Numbered from the stretch's first letter, positions 18,754 to 30,860 are shown. The stretch: 64,000 nucleotides of DNA from a virus (IMGVR_UViG_3300019487_000021), one strand, 5' to 3'. A program made the numbers and translations. Notes: generated by a model not told the origin, from the sequence alone.

Positions 18754-19020
18754 ATGGAGAAACACATGGATCTTAACTACTACCGCAAAGCTGCTGGTCT
18801 TTCTCTTGTAGAGAGTGATGCTTCACCGGAGCATATCAAGAGTGAAAAGGCTCTATTCGAAACGTGTATCGGTCATTGCGACAAGATTATTGCAATGTGT
18901 GAAGCACGCCTTCAACAGAACGATCTCTCGGACGAGCACAAAAAGCAGTACACAGAACTTTGTAAGTGCACAAAAGAGCACGTAGCTCTTTTGAGGAAGC
19001 ATCTTGCAAGTTACAAATGA
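18754..19020 (+). CDS. hypothetical protein
   Basis: 'YYRKAAGL' N-terminus; late-promoter-like CATAAATA upstream. Confidence 0.65.
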   Translation: MEKHMDLNYYRKAAGLSLVESDASPEHIKSEKALFETCIGHCDKIIAMCEARLQQNDLSDEHKKQYTELCKCTKEHVALLRKHLASYK

Positions 19021-24033: not shown

Positions 24034-24112
24034 GCTCGAGTAGCTCAGTGGTTTCAGAGCGGCGGTCTCTAAAACCGAATCGGTCGGGGGTTCGAATCCC
24101 CCCTCGAGCACC
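24034..24112 (+). tRNA. tRNA with CTA anticodon (amber suppressor)
   Basis: GCTCGAG acceptor, GCTC/GAGC D-stem, loop CT-CTA-AA, GGGGG-TTCGAAT-CCCCC, ACCA; CATAAATA directly upstream. Confidence 0.85.
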
Positions 24113-24173
24113 AACACTAAGCGCTCAAGACTTGAAACAGACCTTTCACTTTTTACTAGACGGGAGTATTATC

Positions 24174-25633: not shown

Positions 25634-27064
25634 ATGAAACAAGGGTTCATCATTTCCAAGAACAGAACCAGCAAACTGTTCTTCAGCTCACGCAGCTCCT
25701 ACAACCGTCCTGTCTGGACGGACAACCTCGAAGAAGCAGCGATTTATCATAGCGACGCATCTGGTTCTGATGCTGTGAAAAAGCTGTGGGTGCGAGGCTC
25801 CTACAGTGCCAAACTAACACCGTTAGCTGAACTCGAAGCGTTTAAGATTGACCCTGAAACCGAAGAGAAGACCCCAATCGAACCACATCACGACGATGTC
25901 GATTCAGCAGTGTCGCCGGATTCAGACATCCCTACTGACGATGCAGATTCCGACATGGATGCAGATTCCGATGATTTACCATCCGACGTGGATGCAGATG
26001 CTGATTCCAGCGAAACTGAAACCGAGAAGGAAACTTGTCCGAAATGCGGCAAAGCAGGACAACACAAAGAAGATTGTGAAATGGCTTTTGTTGCGCAGGA
26101 TGAAGAGCGTTCAGCCGTTAATACAGGCAACCTGTTTCACGCTGACGAGCCGGTGATGTGGAACGGACACAACGCAACAGTTATCGTACCAAACGCACAA
26201 GCTGATTTCGTTGTAATTCGTGTTGATGGACTTGACAAAAAGGTTCCATATAAGGATGTTCAGAAGGTTCGTTCAGAATCTATTGAAGGTGTTAATCCGC
26301 AAATGGCATATGCTGCTCGTGCCGCTGCATGGGATCGCGCTGGATTGGGTGCAGGCGAACGAGCAGGTCAAGCACGCGCTGGAGAACATGCATGGAGTGA
26401 TCGTCCGAAGCGCGTTTACGTAATCTATAACGGTCGCAAGTACGATTTCGAAAACAATGCACCAGCTGCCGTTCAATTCATTCGTAAACTGACTCCAGAC
26501 GAACAGAAATTAGCCAAGTTGGTTACTGAAGATTCTCACATGCCTAAGCGTCCTGGCAATGATCCAGCTCCTCCAAGTGAGAATGATGACACAATTCCAA
26601 ACCTAACAGAACCAAAGGTTAGTGAGGTTGATTTCGACGACCCAGTTGGTGAGGAAAACAGGCCAGAAACAGATCTGACATATGCAACAGCTATGAATCA
26701 TGATGAGAAAGTCAAGATTCCTGGCAACGTTATGTCAGCACTCAAGGCAAGTATCGACACGTTCCGCAAGGCAGCTGACTACAACAACACGCGTGATGAT
26801 GCACAGGCGTCATTCTGCATGACAGTTGCTGGTGCTATGGAAGAGTTGCATGATCATCTTTCACAGGGCACTGTTGCAGGTATGAAGCAAGCTCAGATCA
26901 AAATGTCTTCTTGGATGAATCCAATCACAACAAACATTCCTGAGGTTGTTCGATTGTTTGTTGTCAATGGTGGTCGTCAGCCAACGTTGAAGGATATGTT
27001 TGACTTCAAGCGTGGTCAAGCACTGTTGAAGCGTGCATCAAAGGGCTTCGGTTACAAGGACTAG
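25634..27064 (+). CDS. large acidic hypothetical protein
   Basis: Asp-rich low-complexity middle; TATAAATA and AGGAG upstream. Confidence 0.75.
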   Translation: MKQGFIISKNRTSKLFFSSRSSYNRPVWTDNLEEAAIYHSDASGSDAVKKLWVRGSYSAKLTPLAELEAFKIDPETEEKTPIEPHHDDVDSAVSPDSDIPTDDADSDMDADSDDLPSDVDADADSSETETEKETCPKCGKAGQHKEDCEMAFVAQDEERSAVNTGNLFHADEPVMWNGHNATVIVPNAQADFVVIRVDGLDKKVPYKDVQKVRSESIEGVNPQMAYAARAAAWDRAGLGAGERAGQARAGEHAWSDRPKRVYVIYNGRKYDFENNAPAAVQFIRKLTPDEQKLAKLVTEDSHMPKRPGNDPAPPSENDDTIPNLTEPKVSEVDFDDPVGEENRPETDLTYATAMNHDEKVKIPGNVMSALKASIDTFRKAADYNNTRDDAQASFCMTVAGAMEELHDHLSQGTVAGMKQAQIKMSSWMNPITTNIPEVVRLFVVNGGRQPTLKDMFDFKRGQALLKRASKGFGYKD

Positions 27065-27068
27065 TCGA

Positions 27069-27416
27069 ATGCGACTAATAGAGTTGTTCCATAGAGGTGT
27101 TTTGAGCGTCCCAACGATGTCGCCACAGCAATTAGCGTTGCGTCACAATGTTCCGTTGTCGGTGATCAATGCACAACTGTACAAAGGAATTCAACACGAA
27201 CTCGAGCACACAAAATCACGCGCCGCTGCTCGTGAAATTGTGCTTGACCATCTTAAAGAGAATCCACGTTATTACGACAAACTCGAAATGGTCCTTCCAG
27301 AAGATGTTGCACCACGTGCAACATCTGCGGTGGCAAAATCTGCGAACAAAGGAAAGCAGAAGACAACCAAACGTGCAAAAGCACGTAGAGTTACGTTTCA
27401 ATGGTCCGGTGGTTGA
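27069..27416 (+). CDS. DUF5661-like hypothetical protein
   Basis: 'GIQHELEHT...A.EIVLDHLKENPRYYDKL'. Confidence 0.65.
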   Translation: MRLIELFHRGVLSVPTMSPQQLALRHNVPLSVINAQLYKGIQHELEHTKSRAAAREIVLDHLKENPRYYDKLEMVLPEDVAPRATSAVAKSANKGKQKTTKRAKARRVTFQWSGG

Positions 27417-27501
27417 TTTTTCGAAACGAATCATATATACTGCACAACACGTGTAGCCAGTGTGTTCTGGTCACGTGTTTTCAAAACTGTTGACCTTCTA
27501 C

Positions 27502-27771
27502 TATAAATAGAGGTACAGTTTGATTTCTTTGGAACTAACTTTGAACTTTGAACATGGAATATGAAGGGTAACGAAATGCAACGCTGTCAATCACTACATA
27601 GCTGGCATCTGAGTGATACGTCACTCGGGCAGGGCTCCATGCGTTCGTATCGATTCGAACGTCCTGAGCAGCCTAACAGCGCCCTTCGTGGAGATCCGAC
27701 CTGGGACTAAAACGGATCTAAGCAGAACAAACACGAAGGGCTCTGCGAGAAATCCAGAGCCCTTCCTTTTT
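27502..27771 (+). promoter_or_regulatory. late promoter plus leader peptide plus terminator/antiterminator at the head of the tRNA array
   Basis: TATAAATA 27502-27509; ORF 27576-27710; 27681-27690 pairs 27732-27741, competing with terminator 27735-27765 + T-run. Confidence 0.7.
27735..27771 (+). terminator. intrinsic terminator (attenuator)
   Basis: GAAGGGCTCTG / CAGAGCCCTTC 11-bp stem + CTTTTT. Confidence 0.85.
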
Positions 27772-27784
27772 GGTAAGTTCAATT

Positions 27785-27990
27785 TTAAGGCGGCATGCAG
27801 GATTAGACGTAACGTCCAGATTGGAAACGAGATCCGACTGTGGACGATAAACATACAGGAATGGTCGGCGGTGAGGATGAAAGTGCGGCGAAAACGCATG
27901 AGTAAGAATCATCACCGTAGGGAATGCCTACGGTGGAGTACGAAAGTATTCTAGAAGAACACTACAGGAGAAATCCTTGTAGCGTTCTTA
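27785..27990 (+). ncRNA. candidate structured RNA before first array tRNA
   Basis: Series of hairpins, several closed by GAAA loops; no credible ORF. Confidence 0.45.
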
Positions 27991-27992
27991 GG

Positions 27993-28067
27993 GGTGATTG
28001 TAATGTAGCGGTTAGCATCCGACTCTGTGAAAGTCGTAGGGCGAGTTCGAATCTCGTCGATCACCCC
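27993..28067 (+). tRNA. trnH: tRNA-His(GTG), G-1 encoded
   Basis: CGACT-CTGTGAA-AGTCG; G-1:C73 pair. Confidence 0.9.
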
Positions 28068-28204
28068 TAAGAACGCATCAACACATGACATTCTGTTTGT
28101 TCCAAATCGAGAAACTGGAAACTGTTGGGAGTGTAACGTTTCGAACAAATCGCAACGGAAAGATTCGAGAGAGCCACAAAGCTCGATGGGTTGAAGATTT
28201 TTAT

Positions 28205-28297
28205 GGAAGATTGGATGAGTGGATTATGTCGGCACCCTGCTAAGGTGTTGAGCGTCGTCAAGATGCTCCGTGGGTTCGAATCCCACATCTTCCTCCA
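28205..28297 (+). tRNA. trnS: tRNA-Ser(GCT)
   Basis: Long variable arm, CCA. Confidence 0.9.
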
Positions 28298-28298
28298 A

Positions 28299-28359
28299 TG
28301 TCTCGGCTGATGGATACAGAACTAACCCTGCGAAGGTTCGATTCCTTTCCGGGACACCA
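28299..28359 (+). pseudogene. tRNA-like RNA lacking proper D/anticodon arms
   Basis: TGTCTCG/CGGGACA acceptor, T-arm, CCA. Confidence 0.55.
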
Positions 28360-28413
28360 GAACGTTGGGCGGAGCCGCTGGTGTGGGCGGCTCCGCCGGT
28401 GCCAAAGAAATAT

Positions 28414-28488
28414 GGAGCGTTGGTATATCGGCGATTATTCCTGACTGTCTATCAGGAGAGACGGGTTCGACTCCCGTACGTTCCGCCA
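28414..28488 (+). tRNA. trnD: tRNA-Asp(GTC)
   Basis: CCTGA-CTGTCTA-TCAGG, CCA. Confidence 0.9.
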
Positions 28489-28656
28489 TATTAATTAAGA
28501 GATACCGTGATCTTCCAGCCAACAAGGAGCTGGTGACTTCCACAACTCGGGAAGTCTAACAAATGCACGGGCCAATTTGGCCGAACCCCACCGGCGGAGC
28601 GAAGAGTAGGGAACAACATCTACGGATGCCTTTATTCGGTTGCAGAATGGGGAAAT

Positions 28657-28740
28657 GGATGACGAGTAGCATTGGCGACTGCAGCGGGCTGTAACCCCGT
28701 GTCCTCTGGACGCTAGGTTCGAATCCTAGGTCATCCACCA
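28657..28740 (+). tRNA. trnY: tRNA-Tyr(GTA)
   Basis: Long variable arm, CCA. Confidence 0.9.
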
Positions 28741-28774
28741 CGAATTCAATGTAGCGGCTGGGCAGACTTTCTAC

Positions 28775-28849
28775 GGTGGATTGGTGAACTGGCTATCACG
28801 TGACCCTCATAAGGTTGAGTAGGCGGATCGTAACCGCCATCCACTACCA
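28775..28849 (+). tRNA. tRNA with CAT anticodon (Met or Ile2)
   Basis: CT-CAT-AA loop, atypical ATCGTAA T-loop, CCA. Confidence 0.75.
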
Positions 28850-28858
28850 GGAGATGAC

Positions 28859-29074
28859 ATGAATAAGTGGGACGAACAAGCAGATGGGAATGCAAGGGAG
28901 AAGTGTTATTTTAACAATCGTCGTGACGAACGAATCTTTAATGAAGACTCTTCTCCAGAAGAAAAGATTCGTTTAATCGGAGAACAAATCGCTTTTGTGG
29001 ACGGACTTCATGAAGCTGTGAACATCTTGTACAGAATGAGCGAATCCAATACCGTAAATGGTGAATTGAATTGA
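28859..29074 (+). CDS. hypothetical protein
   Basis: AGGAG SD, 71 aa. Confidence 0.55.
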   Translation: MNKWDEQADGNAREKCYFNNRRDERIFNEDSSPEEKIRLIGEQIAFVDGLHEAVNILYRMSESNTVNGELN

Positions 29075-29098
29075 TCGCTATGATCAAACAGAAATAAT

Positions 29099-29184
29099 GC
29101 CCTTGTGTGTAATTGGTAAACGCACGACGTTGAGAGCGTCGGCCACATAAGTGGGTGCAGGTTCGACTCCTGTCAAGGGCACCA
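29099..29184 (+). tRNA. trnL: tRNA-Leu(GAG)
   Basis: CGACG-TTGAGAG-CGTCG, long variable arm, CCA. Confidence 0.85.
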
Positions 29185-29188
29185 AGTT

Positions 29189-29213
29189 GTTGCGCAGTAA
29201 GACAGTTACTTCA
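29189..29213 (+). repeat. dispersed element GTTGCGYAGT-N6-GTTACTTCA, copy 1
   Basis: Same spacing at 30474 and 31757. Confidence 0.8.
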
Positions 29214-29274
29214 CTTTATGCAAAAGCGAGTTAGGGCGTTCGATTCCCCTCTAGAATCCTGGTGGAACTTGATT

Positions 29275-29342
29275 GGCGAGGTAGTTTAATGGAGAACAGC
29301 CCCGCGGGGCTAACGGGGGTTGGAATCCCTCCTTCGCCGCTA
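29275..29342 (+). pseudogene. tRNA-like RNA with collapsed anticodon loop
   Basis: GGCGAGG/CTTCGCC acceptor; AGCCCC-GC-GGGGCT in place of anticodon arm. Confidence 0.55.
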
Positions 29343-29346
29343 ATAT

Positions 29347-29423
29347 CAGGGTGTAATGTCAATTGGTAGACGGCCTGTTTTGGAGACAGGAGGTTGGAAG
29401 TTCGAGTCTTCTCACCCTGACCA
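29347..29423 (+). tRNA. trnP: tRNA-Pro(TGG)
   Basis: CCTGT-TTTGGAG-ACAGG, CCA. Confidence 0.9.
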
Positions 29424-29429
29424 TATTAT

Positions 29430-29594
29430 CGGATGTGGCGCAAATGAAGACGGCTCCCCACTAGCGGGAGAGAGGTGGATATGCGACTAAGTCGGTGAGT
29501 TGAGGGATAACCGCTCGAGAGGCCCTTCGACAAGAGTTCCGAAAGAAAGGTGTCTGTATATCTTATGCAGGTTCAAATCCTGTTCATCCGCACC
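29430..29594 (+). ncRNA. tRNA-like RNA with about 90-nt expanded variable region
   Basis: CGGATG/CATCCG acceptor, CTCCC/GGGAG arm, T-arm CAGG-TTCAAAT-CCTG. Confidence 0.5.
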
Positions 29595-29631
29595 CTGTTT
29601 CATCTTATAAGTAATGTATCACTTATAAGAG

Positions 29632-30408
29632 ATGGAAATGATTGTTGTCACAGGTGCTCATGGTTTTATTGGAAGTCATGTTGTCAAAACACTGCAGACG
29701 CGAGGACGTCAAGTAGTATCGATCGATATCGACAACCGAAACACGTTGTTTGAACTTACTGATGTTGAGGCTGTCATTCATCAAGGCGCGTGTGCAGACA
29801 CAACCGAAACAGACGTATCGCGCATGATGGAGTTAAACTATGACTACTCTAAGCGTGTGTTAGAGTACTGTCAGAACATTCCTTTGATCTATGCATCGTC
29901 GGCCGCTGTGTACGGTAACACACCAGGACAGGAACATCCGTTGAATCTTTACGGATGGTCAAAGCTGATGTTCGACGACCTTGTTCGAGCGACTAAACTG
30001 CCACACGTCGTTGGACTACGATATTTCAACGTGTACGGTCCTGGTGAGCATTGCAAAGGACGTATGGCGTCGATGATACATCAACTGTGTGAGCAATACA
30101 AAACAACTGGTAAAGTCAGACTGTTTGAGAGCGGTGAACAACAACGAGATTTCATTCATGTCGAAGATGTCGTGAATGTTATCATGTCCTTTCTCACCAA
30201 TCCTATTGGCGGAATCTACGATGTTGGAACAGGTGTGGCAATATCATTTAACGAATTAGCGCGAATCATCACGCAAGATTCGAGCAATGCAATTGAGTAT
30301 TTTCCGATGCCAGAACAGATCAAAGGAAAATACCAAACATATACACAAGCTGACCTCACGCAATTGCGTCGTGTAGGTTATGCAAAAGACATTCTTGGTG
30401 TAGGCTAG
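29632..30408 (+). CDS. hldD: ADP-L-glycero-D-manno-heptose 6-epimerase-like SDR
   Basis: 'VTGAHGFIGS', 'HQGACADTTE', 'YASSAAVYG', 'PLNLYGWSK', 'LRYFNVYGPGE', 'GRMAS'. Confidence 0.85.
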   Translation: MEMIVVTGAHGFIGSHVVKTLQTRGRQVVSIDIDNRNTLFELTDVEAVIHQGACADTTETDVSRMMELNYDYSKRVLEYCQNIPLIYASSAAVYGNTPGQEHPLNLYGWSKLMFDDLVRATKLPHVVGLRYFNVYGPGEHCKGRMASMIHQLCEQYKTTGKVRLFESGEQQRDFIHVEDVVNVIMSFLTNPIGGIYDVGTGVAISFNELARIITQDSSNAIEYFPMPEQIKGKYQTYTQADLTQLRRVGYAKDILGVG

Positions 30409-30470
30409 TCTGGTTAGTCACTCCGTTTGGGGCGGAGACCACGCAGGTTCGACTCCTGTCACCAAGACCA
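30394..30470 (+). tRNA. trnP: tRNA-Pro(TGG), overlapping hldD stop
   Basis: CTCCG-TTTGGGG-CGGAG, CCA. Confidence 0.85.
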
Positions 30471-30473
30471 ATC

Positions 30474-30498
30474 GTTGCGCAGTAGTAGAGTTACTTCA
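30474..30498 (+). repeat. dispersed element copy 2
   Basis: GTTGCGCAGT-AGTAGA-GTTACTTCA. Confidence 0.8.
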
Positions 30499-30719
30499 TT
30501 TAGTTCGACTCTAAAATTCGCCACAAAGAGCATCGAGGTGTTTTTTGTGGCGAATCGGCCGTGGGGCCAAGCGGGCTCATAACCCGAGCGGGAAACCGCA
30601 TGTTCTCTGCACGTTTAATCTCGATTGATGTTCCTAACAGTCATCCGCCAAGCGTTTATAAGACAAAGTAGCGTCCCACAGCCACGCACACAGAGGTGGT
30701 TTTGTCGTGCTACAAATTT

Positions 30720-30794
30720 CTCCGTAGAGCGTGAGGGTTAGCGTACAACGTTTGGGGCGTTGTGGACAAGATTCAAGTTCTTGTACGGAGACCA
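30720..30794 (+). tRNA. trnP: tRNA-Pro(TGG)
   Basis: CAACG-TTTGGGG-CGTTG, CCA. Confidence 0.85.
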
Positions 30795-30818: not shown

Positions 30819-30860
30819 TGCCCCTGATGGTGTCCTATAAATACTATCAGGAGGACTTAT

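Follow-up and report, generated by a model that had tools for sequence, protein, structure and literature searches.

A candidate leader-peptide attenuator whose codons match the tRNA cluster behind it in an uncultured large phage and its relatives

Leader-peptide attenuators are known from amino-acid operons, among them those headed by trpL, hisL, leuL, pheL, thrL (Thr/Ile) and the leader of ilvGMEDA (Ile/Leu/Val). In the trpL type, a short translated ORF led by a Shine–Dalgarno sequence (SD) contains a hairpin, and its codons name the amino acids whose supply the downstream genes secure. The terminator 5′ arm has an alternative partner in a strand inside or just after the ORF, and slow decoding leads to read-through. 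Attenuation of this kind also reaches the translation apparatus, as in the pheST operon of E. coli, an aminoacyl-tRNA synthetase operon with the leader pheM, where the level of charged tRNA is sensed. The T-box (RF00230) is another terminator/antiterminator switch that reports on the tRNA pool for translation-related genes, and it does so by direct binding of uncharged tRNA, which is recognised by a specifier codon and the T-box sequence with no translation involved. The regulation of phage tRNA arrays is poorly understood, and the usual view is that they are cargo under constitutive co-transcription, either correcting codon bias or making good the tRNAs that host shut-off or anticodon nucleases remove. 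Our literature search found no publication on leader-peptide attenuation, or on attenuators, in front of tRNA genes.

Our study concerns a cassette that heads the tRNA array of an uncultured, distantly T4-like large (giant) phage from a cave metagenome (IMGVR_UViG_3300019487_000021). The whole stretch of 64 000 nt that was analysed is called the window here. The two DNA datasets that carry the window's DNA are both cave metagenomes, and T4-like Caulobacter phage Cr30 holds the nearest cultured relative of the neighbouring gene (46 % amino-acid identity). A first-pass annotation had proposed a leader peptide with mutually exclusive antiterminator and terminator helices ahead of the array, and every part that it named, namely the T4-late-type motif TATAAATA, the 44-codon ORF, the 10-bp antiterminator and the 11-bp terminator with its T-run, lies where it had been placed (Table 1). 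The two antiterminator strands, R2 and R3, are exact complements (GCCCTTCGTG and CACGAAGGGC), and a gap of 223 nt separates the cassette from tRNA-His. There is, in our judgement, a good probability that the cassette is a ribosome-mediated transcription attenuator for the tRNA cluster directly behind it (cluster 1). The conserved coding ORF and the covarying antiterminator described below support both this reading and the sign that the annotation had given the switch.

Table 1. Features of the leader cassette, its surroundings in the window and the second cassette of two relatives
Feature	Position	Strand	Details
Terminator-like hairpin with T-run	27446–27481	+	−16.5 kcal/mol; predicted to end the upstream gene (27033–27416) and to insulate the cassette
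Putative promoter region	27490–27519	+	TTGACC 27490–27495; TATAAATA 27502–27509; TACAGT 27514–27519
Shine–Dalgarno-like GAAGGG	27564–27569	+	6 nt 5′ of the ATG
Leader ORF	27576–27710	+	ATG at 27576, TAA at 27708–27710; 44 codons plus stop
H1 hairpin	27609–27628	+	8 bp and tetraloop; within the ORF, codons 12–18
R2, antiterminator 5′ strand	27681–27690	+	GCCCTTCGTG; codons 36–39 of the leader ORF
Inner helix, AGATCCG/CGGATCT	27692–27698 with 27713–27719	+	stop codon (27708–27710) in the loop
R3, antiterminator 3′ strand	27732–27741	+	CACGAAGGGC; overlaps the terminator 5′ arm
Intrinsic terminator	27735–27771	+	11-bp stem (27735–27745/27755–27765), 9-nt loop, C, TTTTT
Structured conserved spacer RNA	27806–27993	+	on the read-through transcript; fold z −5.2; this subgroup only
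First tRNA block	27994–30794	+	His, Ser(GCT), Asp, Tyr, Met, Leu, an Rfam-only tRNA hit, Pro ×3; one inserted ORF
Leader-2 cassette, G001	L042:12560–12765		
Leader-2 cassette, G002	L046: about 3030–2830	−	

Set against the trpL type, the locus has the same short SD-led ORF with a hairpin inside it, a predicted intrinsic terminator between the leader and the tRNAs, and a mutually exclusive antiterminator whose other strand lies within reach of the leader ribosome; slow decoding would here, too, give read-through. The regulatory codons match the genes behind them in a new form, as many amino acids are named without runs, and the leader samples about 14 of them once or a few times each, whereas a trpL-type leader carries a run of one to three. 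No conserved counterpart was found of the 1:2 pause/anti-antiterminator hairpin of the trpL type, which shares strand 2 with the antiterminator. As H1 and R2 have no strand in common, the locus departs from the trpL plan: RNA that is not being translated would by default allow read-through, and the loss of the ribosome should have this effect and not super-attenuation. Further differences are that tRNAs rather than enzymes would be regulated, that the element is phage-borne with a T4-late-type promoter motif, that the middle of the peptide is conserved in sequence, and that the Rfam leader families for Trp, His, Leu, Thr and Phe gave no match. With pheST the locus would share leader-peptide attenuation of a component of the translation apparatus and the sensing of charged tRNA, but pheST responds to Phe alone and encodes a synthetase, whereas here many amino acids and the tRNA genes themselves are involved. 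It resembles the T-box in being a putative terminator/antiterminator switch reporting on the tRNA pool, yet it contains a selected, conserved ORF, and cmscan found neither a Stem I specifier loop nor a T-box antiterminator sequence (RF00230). Across 26500–29500, with E values up to 5, cmscan returned no known leader family, T-box or riboswitch; its matches were tRNAs and a sub-threshold Bradyrhizobiaceae sRNA model on the terminator hairpin, and nothing else.

Copies of the element were recovered by way of neighbouring proteins, by nhmmer against the fetched loci together with one metagenome pattern scan, and by a peptide profile search with contig look-ups. Seventeen distinct DNA copies were obtained in this way, along with 43 variants of the peptide, all from uncultured large phages; the architecture, which the annotation had suggested looking for ahead of other phage tRNA arrays, does recur there. 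The exhaustive profile search yielded 36 peptide clusters at 50 % identity, nearly all of 42–68 residues. The layout is common to all copies and runs from the promoter motif (cut off in L034) through an SD-like word, ATG, ORF, R2, stop codon and R3/terminator to the tRNA array. Wherever the DNA extends far enough, the copy heads an array beginning with tRNA-His: this was the first tRNA called by ARAGORN behind the leader in 16 of the 17 copies, and in L024 a His-like sequence is present, though uncalled. A nucleotide search of INPHARED with positions 27000–28100 matched tRNA-His only, revealing no nucleotide relative among deposited phages, and tblastn of the leader peptide against INPHARED gave no match and no cultured carrier. 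Pattern scans of IMG/VR returned just two contigs of the L001 type and, for the second leader described below, just the genomes G001 and G002. The metagenome match L028 was rejected as a family member, being a chance match in high-GC coding DNA.

Comparative evidence indicates that the leader ORF is translated. It is open in all 17 copies, at 43–47 codons, whereas the other frames hold stops; its length differences are whole codons, arising from in-frame indels, and a GG-containing SD-like word stands about 6–11 nt before every ATG. The pN/pS ratio (Nei–Gojobori, nine neighbour pairs) was 0.50 in the leader frame and stood at 1.27 and 0.89 when the frame was shifted. For the middle segment it was 0.29 against 1.00 and 1.30, and the tail after R2 evolves neutrally, at 1.10. 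Taken together, the open frame, the whole-codon indels and the frame-specific pN/pS indicate that the ORF is read by ribosomes and that the middle of the peptide is constrained. The ratio of 0.29 represents more constraint than a pure codon sampler would need, and it points to an added requirement at the level of the peptide or of the RNA.

The leader ends in TAA in 15 copies, in TAG in L035 and in TGA in L032. A tRNA with a CTA anticodon (amber-suppressor type; called Pyl by ARAGORN) lies at 24034–24113 in the window, just behind CATAAATA, and relatives have one at the same position (L001 4392, L007 9811, L009 9883 and L010 9606), with more copies within some arrays. Read-through of the leader stop in L035 is conceivable, since these phages carry such tRNAs.

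The antiterminator was tested in a 17-sequence alignment (A5), in which its 10 pairs make up 170 cells. Standard pairs filled 98.2 % of these cells, a value reached by none of 500 shuffles, and controls in which the strands were slid gave 26–67 %. Two pairs have changed on both sides: 16–75 is UA in 11 copies and CG in 5, and 14–77 is UA in 15, CG in one and UG in one. In L035 a near-invariant Leu has become Pro and the pair is restored as C–G, so that at this position RNA pairing outranks the peptide. The exceptions are a C–A mismatch in L033 and a weakened end in L032. Base pairs of the terminator are 99 % conserved across the copies. When RNAalifold was applied to the whole leader of the 17 sequences, it returned two conserved helices only, R2:R3 and H1. 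The latter is paired in 87 % of cells, compared with 49 % or less in slid controls and with none of 1000 shuffles reaching the observed value, and its compensatory changes alter encoded residues, such as Ser to Trp. From its position, which fits, we infer that H1 acts as an RNA polymerase pause or synchronising hairpin that lets the ribosome catch up. A helix at the site of the inner helix is predicted in most copies, with differing sequences.

Structure prediction places the terminator in the fold of the full-length transcript, and if the transcript is truncated at 27750, so that the 3′ arm of the terminator is missing, the R2:R3 antiterminator and the inner helix are predicted instead. The predicted terminator (−22.7 kcal/mol) is the strongest found on the + strand within 13000–64000, and the antiterminator of the window is about equally stable (−23.5 kcal/mol); across the 17 copies the ranges are −19.5 to −28.6 kcal/mol for the antiterminator and −17.3 to −22.7 kcal/mol for the terminator. 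With two structures of about equal stability, the outcome would depend on which strands are made first and on what occupies R2. Forcing the terminator in RNAalifold revealed no conserved RNA partner for R2 among the 17 sequences. The GAAGGG of the window can pair with CCCTTC in R2, but pairing of the SD with R2 was rejected as a conserved anti-antiterminator, as it is available in some members and not family-wide. With no conserved RNA partner, the masking of R2 that terminator function requires must come from a non-RNA factor, and since R2 lies within a translated ORF, the ribosome is the obvious candidate. A translating ribosome is likely to be the switch. A terminating ribosome covers about 15 nt behind and 12–15 nt ahead of the A site. 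Over the family the end of R2 lies 11–17 nt before the stop codon, and R3 starts 18–32 nt after it (21 nt in the window). With this spacing, a terminating ribosome would melt the inner helix and part R2 from R3 without reaching the terminator.

The leader had also been described as using many different amino acids and interpreted as a general translation-stress sensor. The variety is real, at 17 kinds, although it is not unusual when compared with 16.6 ± 1.5 in random 44-residue windows of the phage's proteins, and codon usage is ordinary (CAI-like score of 0.716 versus 0.773 ± 0.048). The notion of a general sensor did not hold up, as the leader avoids six amino acids and matches its own tRNA cluster, and as relatives possess a second, reciprocal leader. 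Lys, Asn, Ile, Ala, Val and Thr make up 7.4 % of the residues encoded before R2 in the 17 DNA copies, and the figure is identical in the 43 peptides. The same six make up 45 % (+1) and 42 % (+2) in the other frames of the leader DNA, 30.8 ± 1.8 % in mononucleotide shuffles (minimum of 1000, 25.8 %) and 37 % in the long ORFs of the window, our measure of the proteome. In the window leader alone they are named by 2 of the 34 codons before R2, where 10.3 would be expected, and none of 5000 shuffles was as low. Depletion relative to the proteome is strongest for Ile, Asn and Lys (0.15–0.22×) and weaker for Val, Ala and Thr (0.4–0.56×), while Cys, Gln, Ser, Met, His, Trp and Leu are enriched.

The tRNA genes show the same omissions. 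Within 3 kb behind the 17 leaders lie 174 of them, one for Lys, one for Thr and none for Asn, Ile, Ala or Val. The whole window holds 34 tRNAs and the closest relative's cluster 1 holds 36, in both cases with none for Ala, Asn, Ile or Lys. A His-specific attenuator was considered and dropped, as the leaders have 1–3 scattered His codons only and the other cluster-1 amino acids are equally represented. The element is thus better described, by inference from codon content, as a sensor of tRNA shortage matched to its cluster than as a sensor of general stress.

Two relatives show where the missing tRNAs are encoded. In the complete 350-kb genome G001, which holds copy L009, the tRNA genes form two clusters, and they are split likewise in G002, which holds L007. 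Cluster 1 of G001, directly behind the leader, serves His, Ser, Pro, Gln, Arg, Asp, Tyr, Glu, Cys, Phe, Gly, Leu and Met, with one Val and one Thr tRNA at its far end; cluster 2, 22 kb beyond, serves Lys, Asn, Ile, Ala, Val and Thr only. The window ends 11 kb past its last tRNA, and the contig of its closest relative (G003, 54 kb) ends before a possible second cluster; given the gap of 22 kb in G001, a second cluster of the window would fall beyond its end. The partition by amino acid is clean in G001 (L040–L043) and G002 (L046–L048), with Val and Thr partly common to both clusters, and cluster 2 corresponds mostly to the ANN codon families plus GCN and GTN.

Directly 5′ of cluster 2, each of the two relatives has a further cassette built to the same plan (leader 2), comprising a CATAAATA promoter motif, an SD, an ORF of 25–27 codons, an antiterminator and a terminator. 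A strand in the last codons pairs with the terminator 5′ arm, and the stop codon stands beside the inner helix. Among the codons before the antiterminator strand, 15 of 18 and 17 of 20 (about 85 %) name the six amino acids that the first leader avoids; shuffles give 7–8 such codons, and none of 5000 reached the observed count. In G002 an HNH-endonuclease-like ORF lies between the leader-2 terminator and tRNA-Lys (L046, about 2780–2290, minus strand). This insert has its own TATAAATA and terminator, and it is followed by a repeat of the attenuator terminator's 3′ half, a pattern that would arise had the ORF inserted into that terminator.

The annotation had envisaged read-through into about 30 tRNA genes. 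ARAGORN called 31 on the + strand, from tRNA-His (27994) to tRNA-Thr (52733), but control over all of them is uncertain. YATAAATA is absent between 27509 and 30836 and occurs inside the array at 30836, 35515, 36340 and 43467, where it may restart transcription or give the distal tRNAs promoters of their own; clear dependence on read-through would be confined to the first block, from His to Pro. Between the terminator and tRNA-His, YATAAATA is absent in 17 of 17 copies, and sigma-70-type promoters may be present. The same interval holds a hairpin-dense spacer RNA that the window has in common with L001, L027, L029 and L030, and for which Rfam gave no match. Its stems change on both sides, for example CGTCCA/TGGACG in the window versus CGTGTTG/CAACACG in L027, as judged by eye in comparison with L001 and L027. 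Members of the other subgroup have a short hairpin spacer in its place. In this second subgroup an RNA-like motif, GAGTAYTCTTCAG ... GAGTGCGATAAAGG, recurs near the starts of arrays, downstream of tRNA-His or the terminator in L024, L026, L034 and L036, and at 18790–18830 in L007.

Transcription of the cassette can be related to a motif found throughout the window. The sequence TATAAATA, the T4 late-promoter consensus, belongs to the 8-mer YATAAATA, of which the window has 19 copies where 2.2 would be expected, most of them just 5′ of ORFs or tRNAs and in the correct orientation. By its distribution, this 8-mer is a general promoter motif in this phage; the extended motif ATAAATAGNNGTACAGT was rejected for that role, as it occurs once in the window whereas the 8-mer recurs. 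The motif is kept in 16 of the 17 copies, the contig of L034 beginning too late to show it. A terminator-like hairpin 5′ of the promoter makes the cassette look like a separate transcription unit, and relatives have a hairpin at the same upstream place, often without the T-run.

Two further observations concern this region. A short inverted repeat flanks the ATAAATA of the promoter, both in the window (27496–27516) and at the same place in 16 relatives, and it covaries (CATCTA/TAGATG, CCATCT/AGATGG, CTTAT/ATAAG), pointing either to a hairpin, formed in RNA or in single-stranded DNA, or to an operator that is co-evolving. A sigma-70-like TTGATT-17-TATACT, with a CATATATACT core that is conserved in relatives, lies at 27413–27441, directly after the stop codon of the upstream gene. 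An early promoter ahead of the late-type one is a possible reading, although in the window the terminator-like hairpin sits between the two.

From these sequence comparisons a mechanism can be proposed. Transcription would begin at the TATAAATA promoter region and ribosomes would translate the 44-codon leader. Were a ribosome, moving at full speed, to occupy R2 or the stop codon while R3 and the terminator 3′ arm (R4) are made, the inner helix would be melted, R3:R4 would form and transcription would stop at 27771. Were it delayed at any codon further upstream, R2 would be free to pair with R3 as the latter emerges, the terminator would be blocked and RNA polymerase would continue into tRNA-His and the genes beyond. 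As the codons upstream of R2 are nearly all served by cluster 1, the signal would be a shortage of the corresponding aminoacyl-tRNAs; lack of any one of them would delay the ribosome and raise transcription of cluster 1, a negative feedback on tRNA supply. In the relatives, the second cassette would act in the same manner ahead of the Lys/Asn/Ile/Ala/Val/Thr cluster. The phage thus probably makes matching tRNAs when its ribosomes run short of them. We lean, if only slightly, towards a wider view in which the system is a modular tRNA homeostat, each cluster standing behind a leader of its own in which the amino acids served by that cluster are represented and those served by the other cluster are avoided.

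Other explanations were weighed. The cassette could be a small-protein gene with its own terminator, the peptide acting in trans, R2:R3 being incidental or stabilizing the 3′ end, and the tRNAs being expressed by leakage or from other promoters. A peptide family of 36 clusters with a middle under purifying selection (pN/pS 0.29), followed by a strong predicted terminator, is what such a gene would show. Its product, though, would hardly end in a tail that evolves neutrally, nor would it account for an R2:R3 helix that covaries and is kept despite radical residue changes (Arg/Cys, and Leu to Pro in L035). Nor does a small protein explain why the leader composition mirrors the tRNA cluster, why the cassette always lies directly 5′ of tRNA-His, or why a second cassette with an unrelated peptide and the same architecture stands before the complementary cluster. 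We give this explanation a small chance.

We rate just as low the idea that the nascent peptide arrests its own ribosome, the middle of the peptide contacting the exit tunnel and setting a halt near R2 in response to a signal other than, or besides, tRNA supply. Sequence conservation is typical of regulatory arrest peptides, TnaC and SecM among them, and the segment with pN/pS of 0.29, some 10–25 residues before the stop, would reside in the tunnel with the ribosome on R2 or the stop codon. No known arrest motif was found in the peptide, however, and the residues that would lie beside the peptidyl-transferase centre at the stop are variable. The peptide of leader 2 is different and shorter, with the architecture unchanged, and arrest leaves the codon matching unexplained.

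A third possibility, which we regard as slightly less probable again, is an attenuator independent of translation, in which a TRAP- or PyrR-like protein, or another ligand, bound to H1 or R2 makes the decision and the ORF is incidental. H1 is conserved and covaries, and with no conserved RNA anti-antiterminator some factor must mask R2, both of which would suit a binding protein. The behaviour of the ORF argues otherwise: the frame stays open through in-frame indels, substitutions are frame-specific, and the amino-acid bias (7 % in frame versus 42–45 % in the others) indicates that selection sees frame 0. No Rfam riboswitch, T-box or leader family matched at E values up to 5. Logic of the pyrBI type, with the opposite sign, in which a closely following ribosome blocks the terminator hairpin and efficient translation gives read-through, is very improbable: a 44-codon leader is indeed close to the length of the pyrBI leader, but the stop lies 21 nt before R3 (18–32 nt in the family), beyond the 12–15 nt that a terminating ribosome reaches, the conserved R2:R3 helix would be left without a role, and a shortage of tRNA would lower tRNA synthesis.

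In summary, ribosome-mediated attenuation, if confirmed, would mean that these phages gauge the speed of decoding for defined sets of codons and provide tRNAs as they are needed. Attenuation, a mode of control familiar from amino-acid and synthetase operons, would extend to tRNA genes in the form of a multi-amino-acid sensor. If each cluster does stand behind its own matching leader, the phage would sense limiting aminoacyl-tRNAs cluster by cluster and transcribe only the matching tRNA block, whether the limitation arises from host shut-off, a mismatch in codon usage or a tRNA-targeting defence; a link to host anticodon nucleases or other defences is speculation. The hypothesis is testable with small reporters, and the element would provide a compact natural sensor of tRNA availability. 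The clustering of phage tRNA genes would then follow a regulatory logic, with His, Ser, Pro, Gln, Arg, Asp, Tyr, Glu, Cys, Phe, Gly, Leu, Met and Trp in one group and Lys, Asn, Ile, Ala, Val and Thr in the other.
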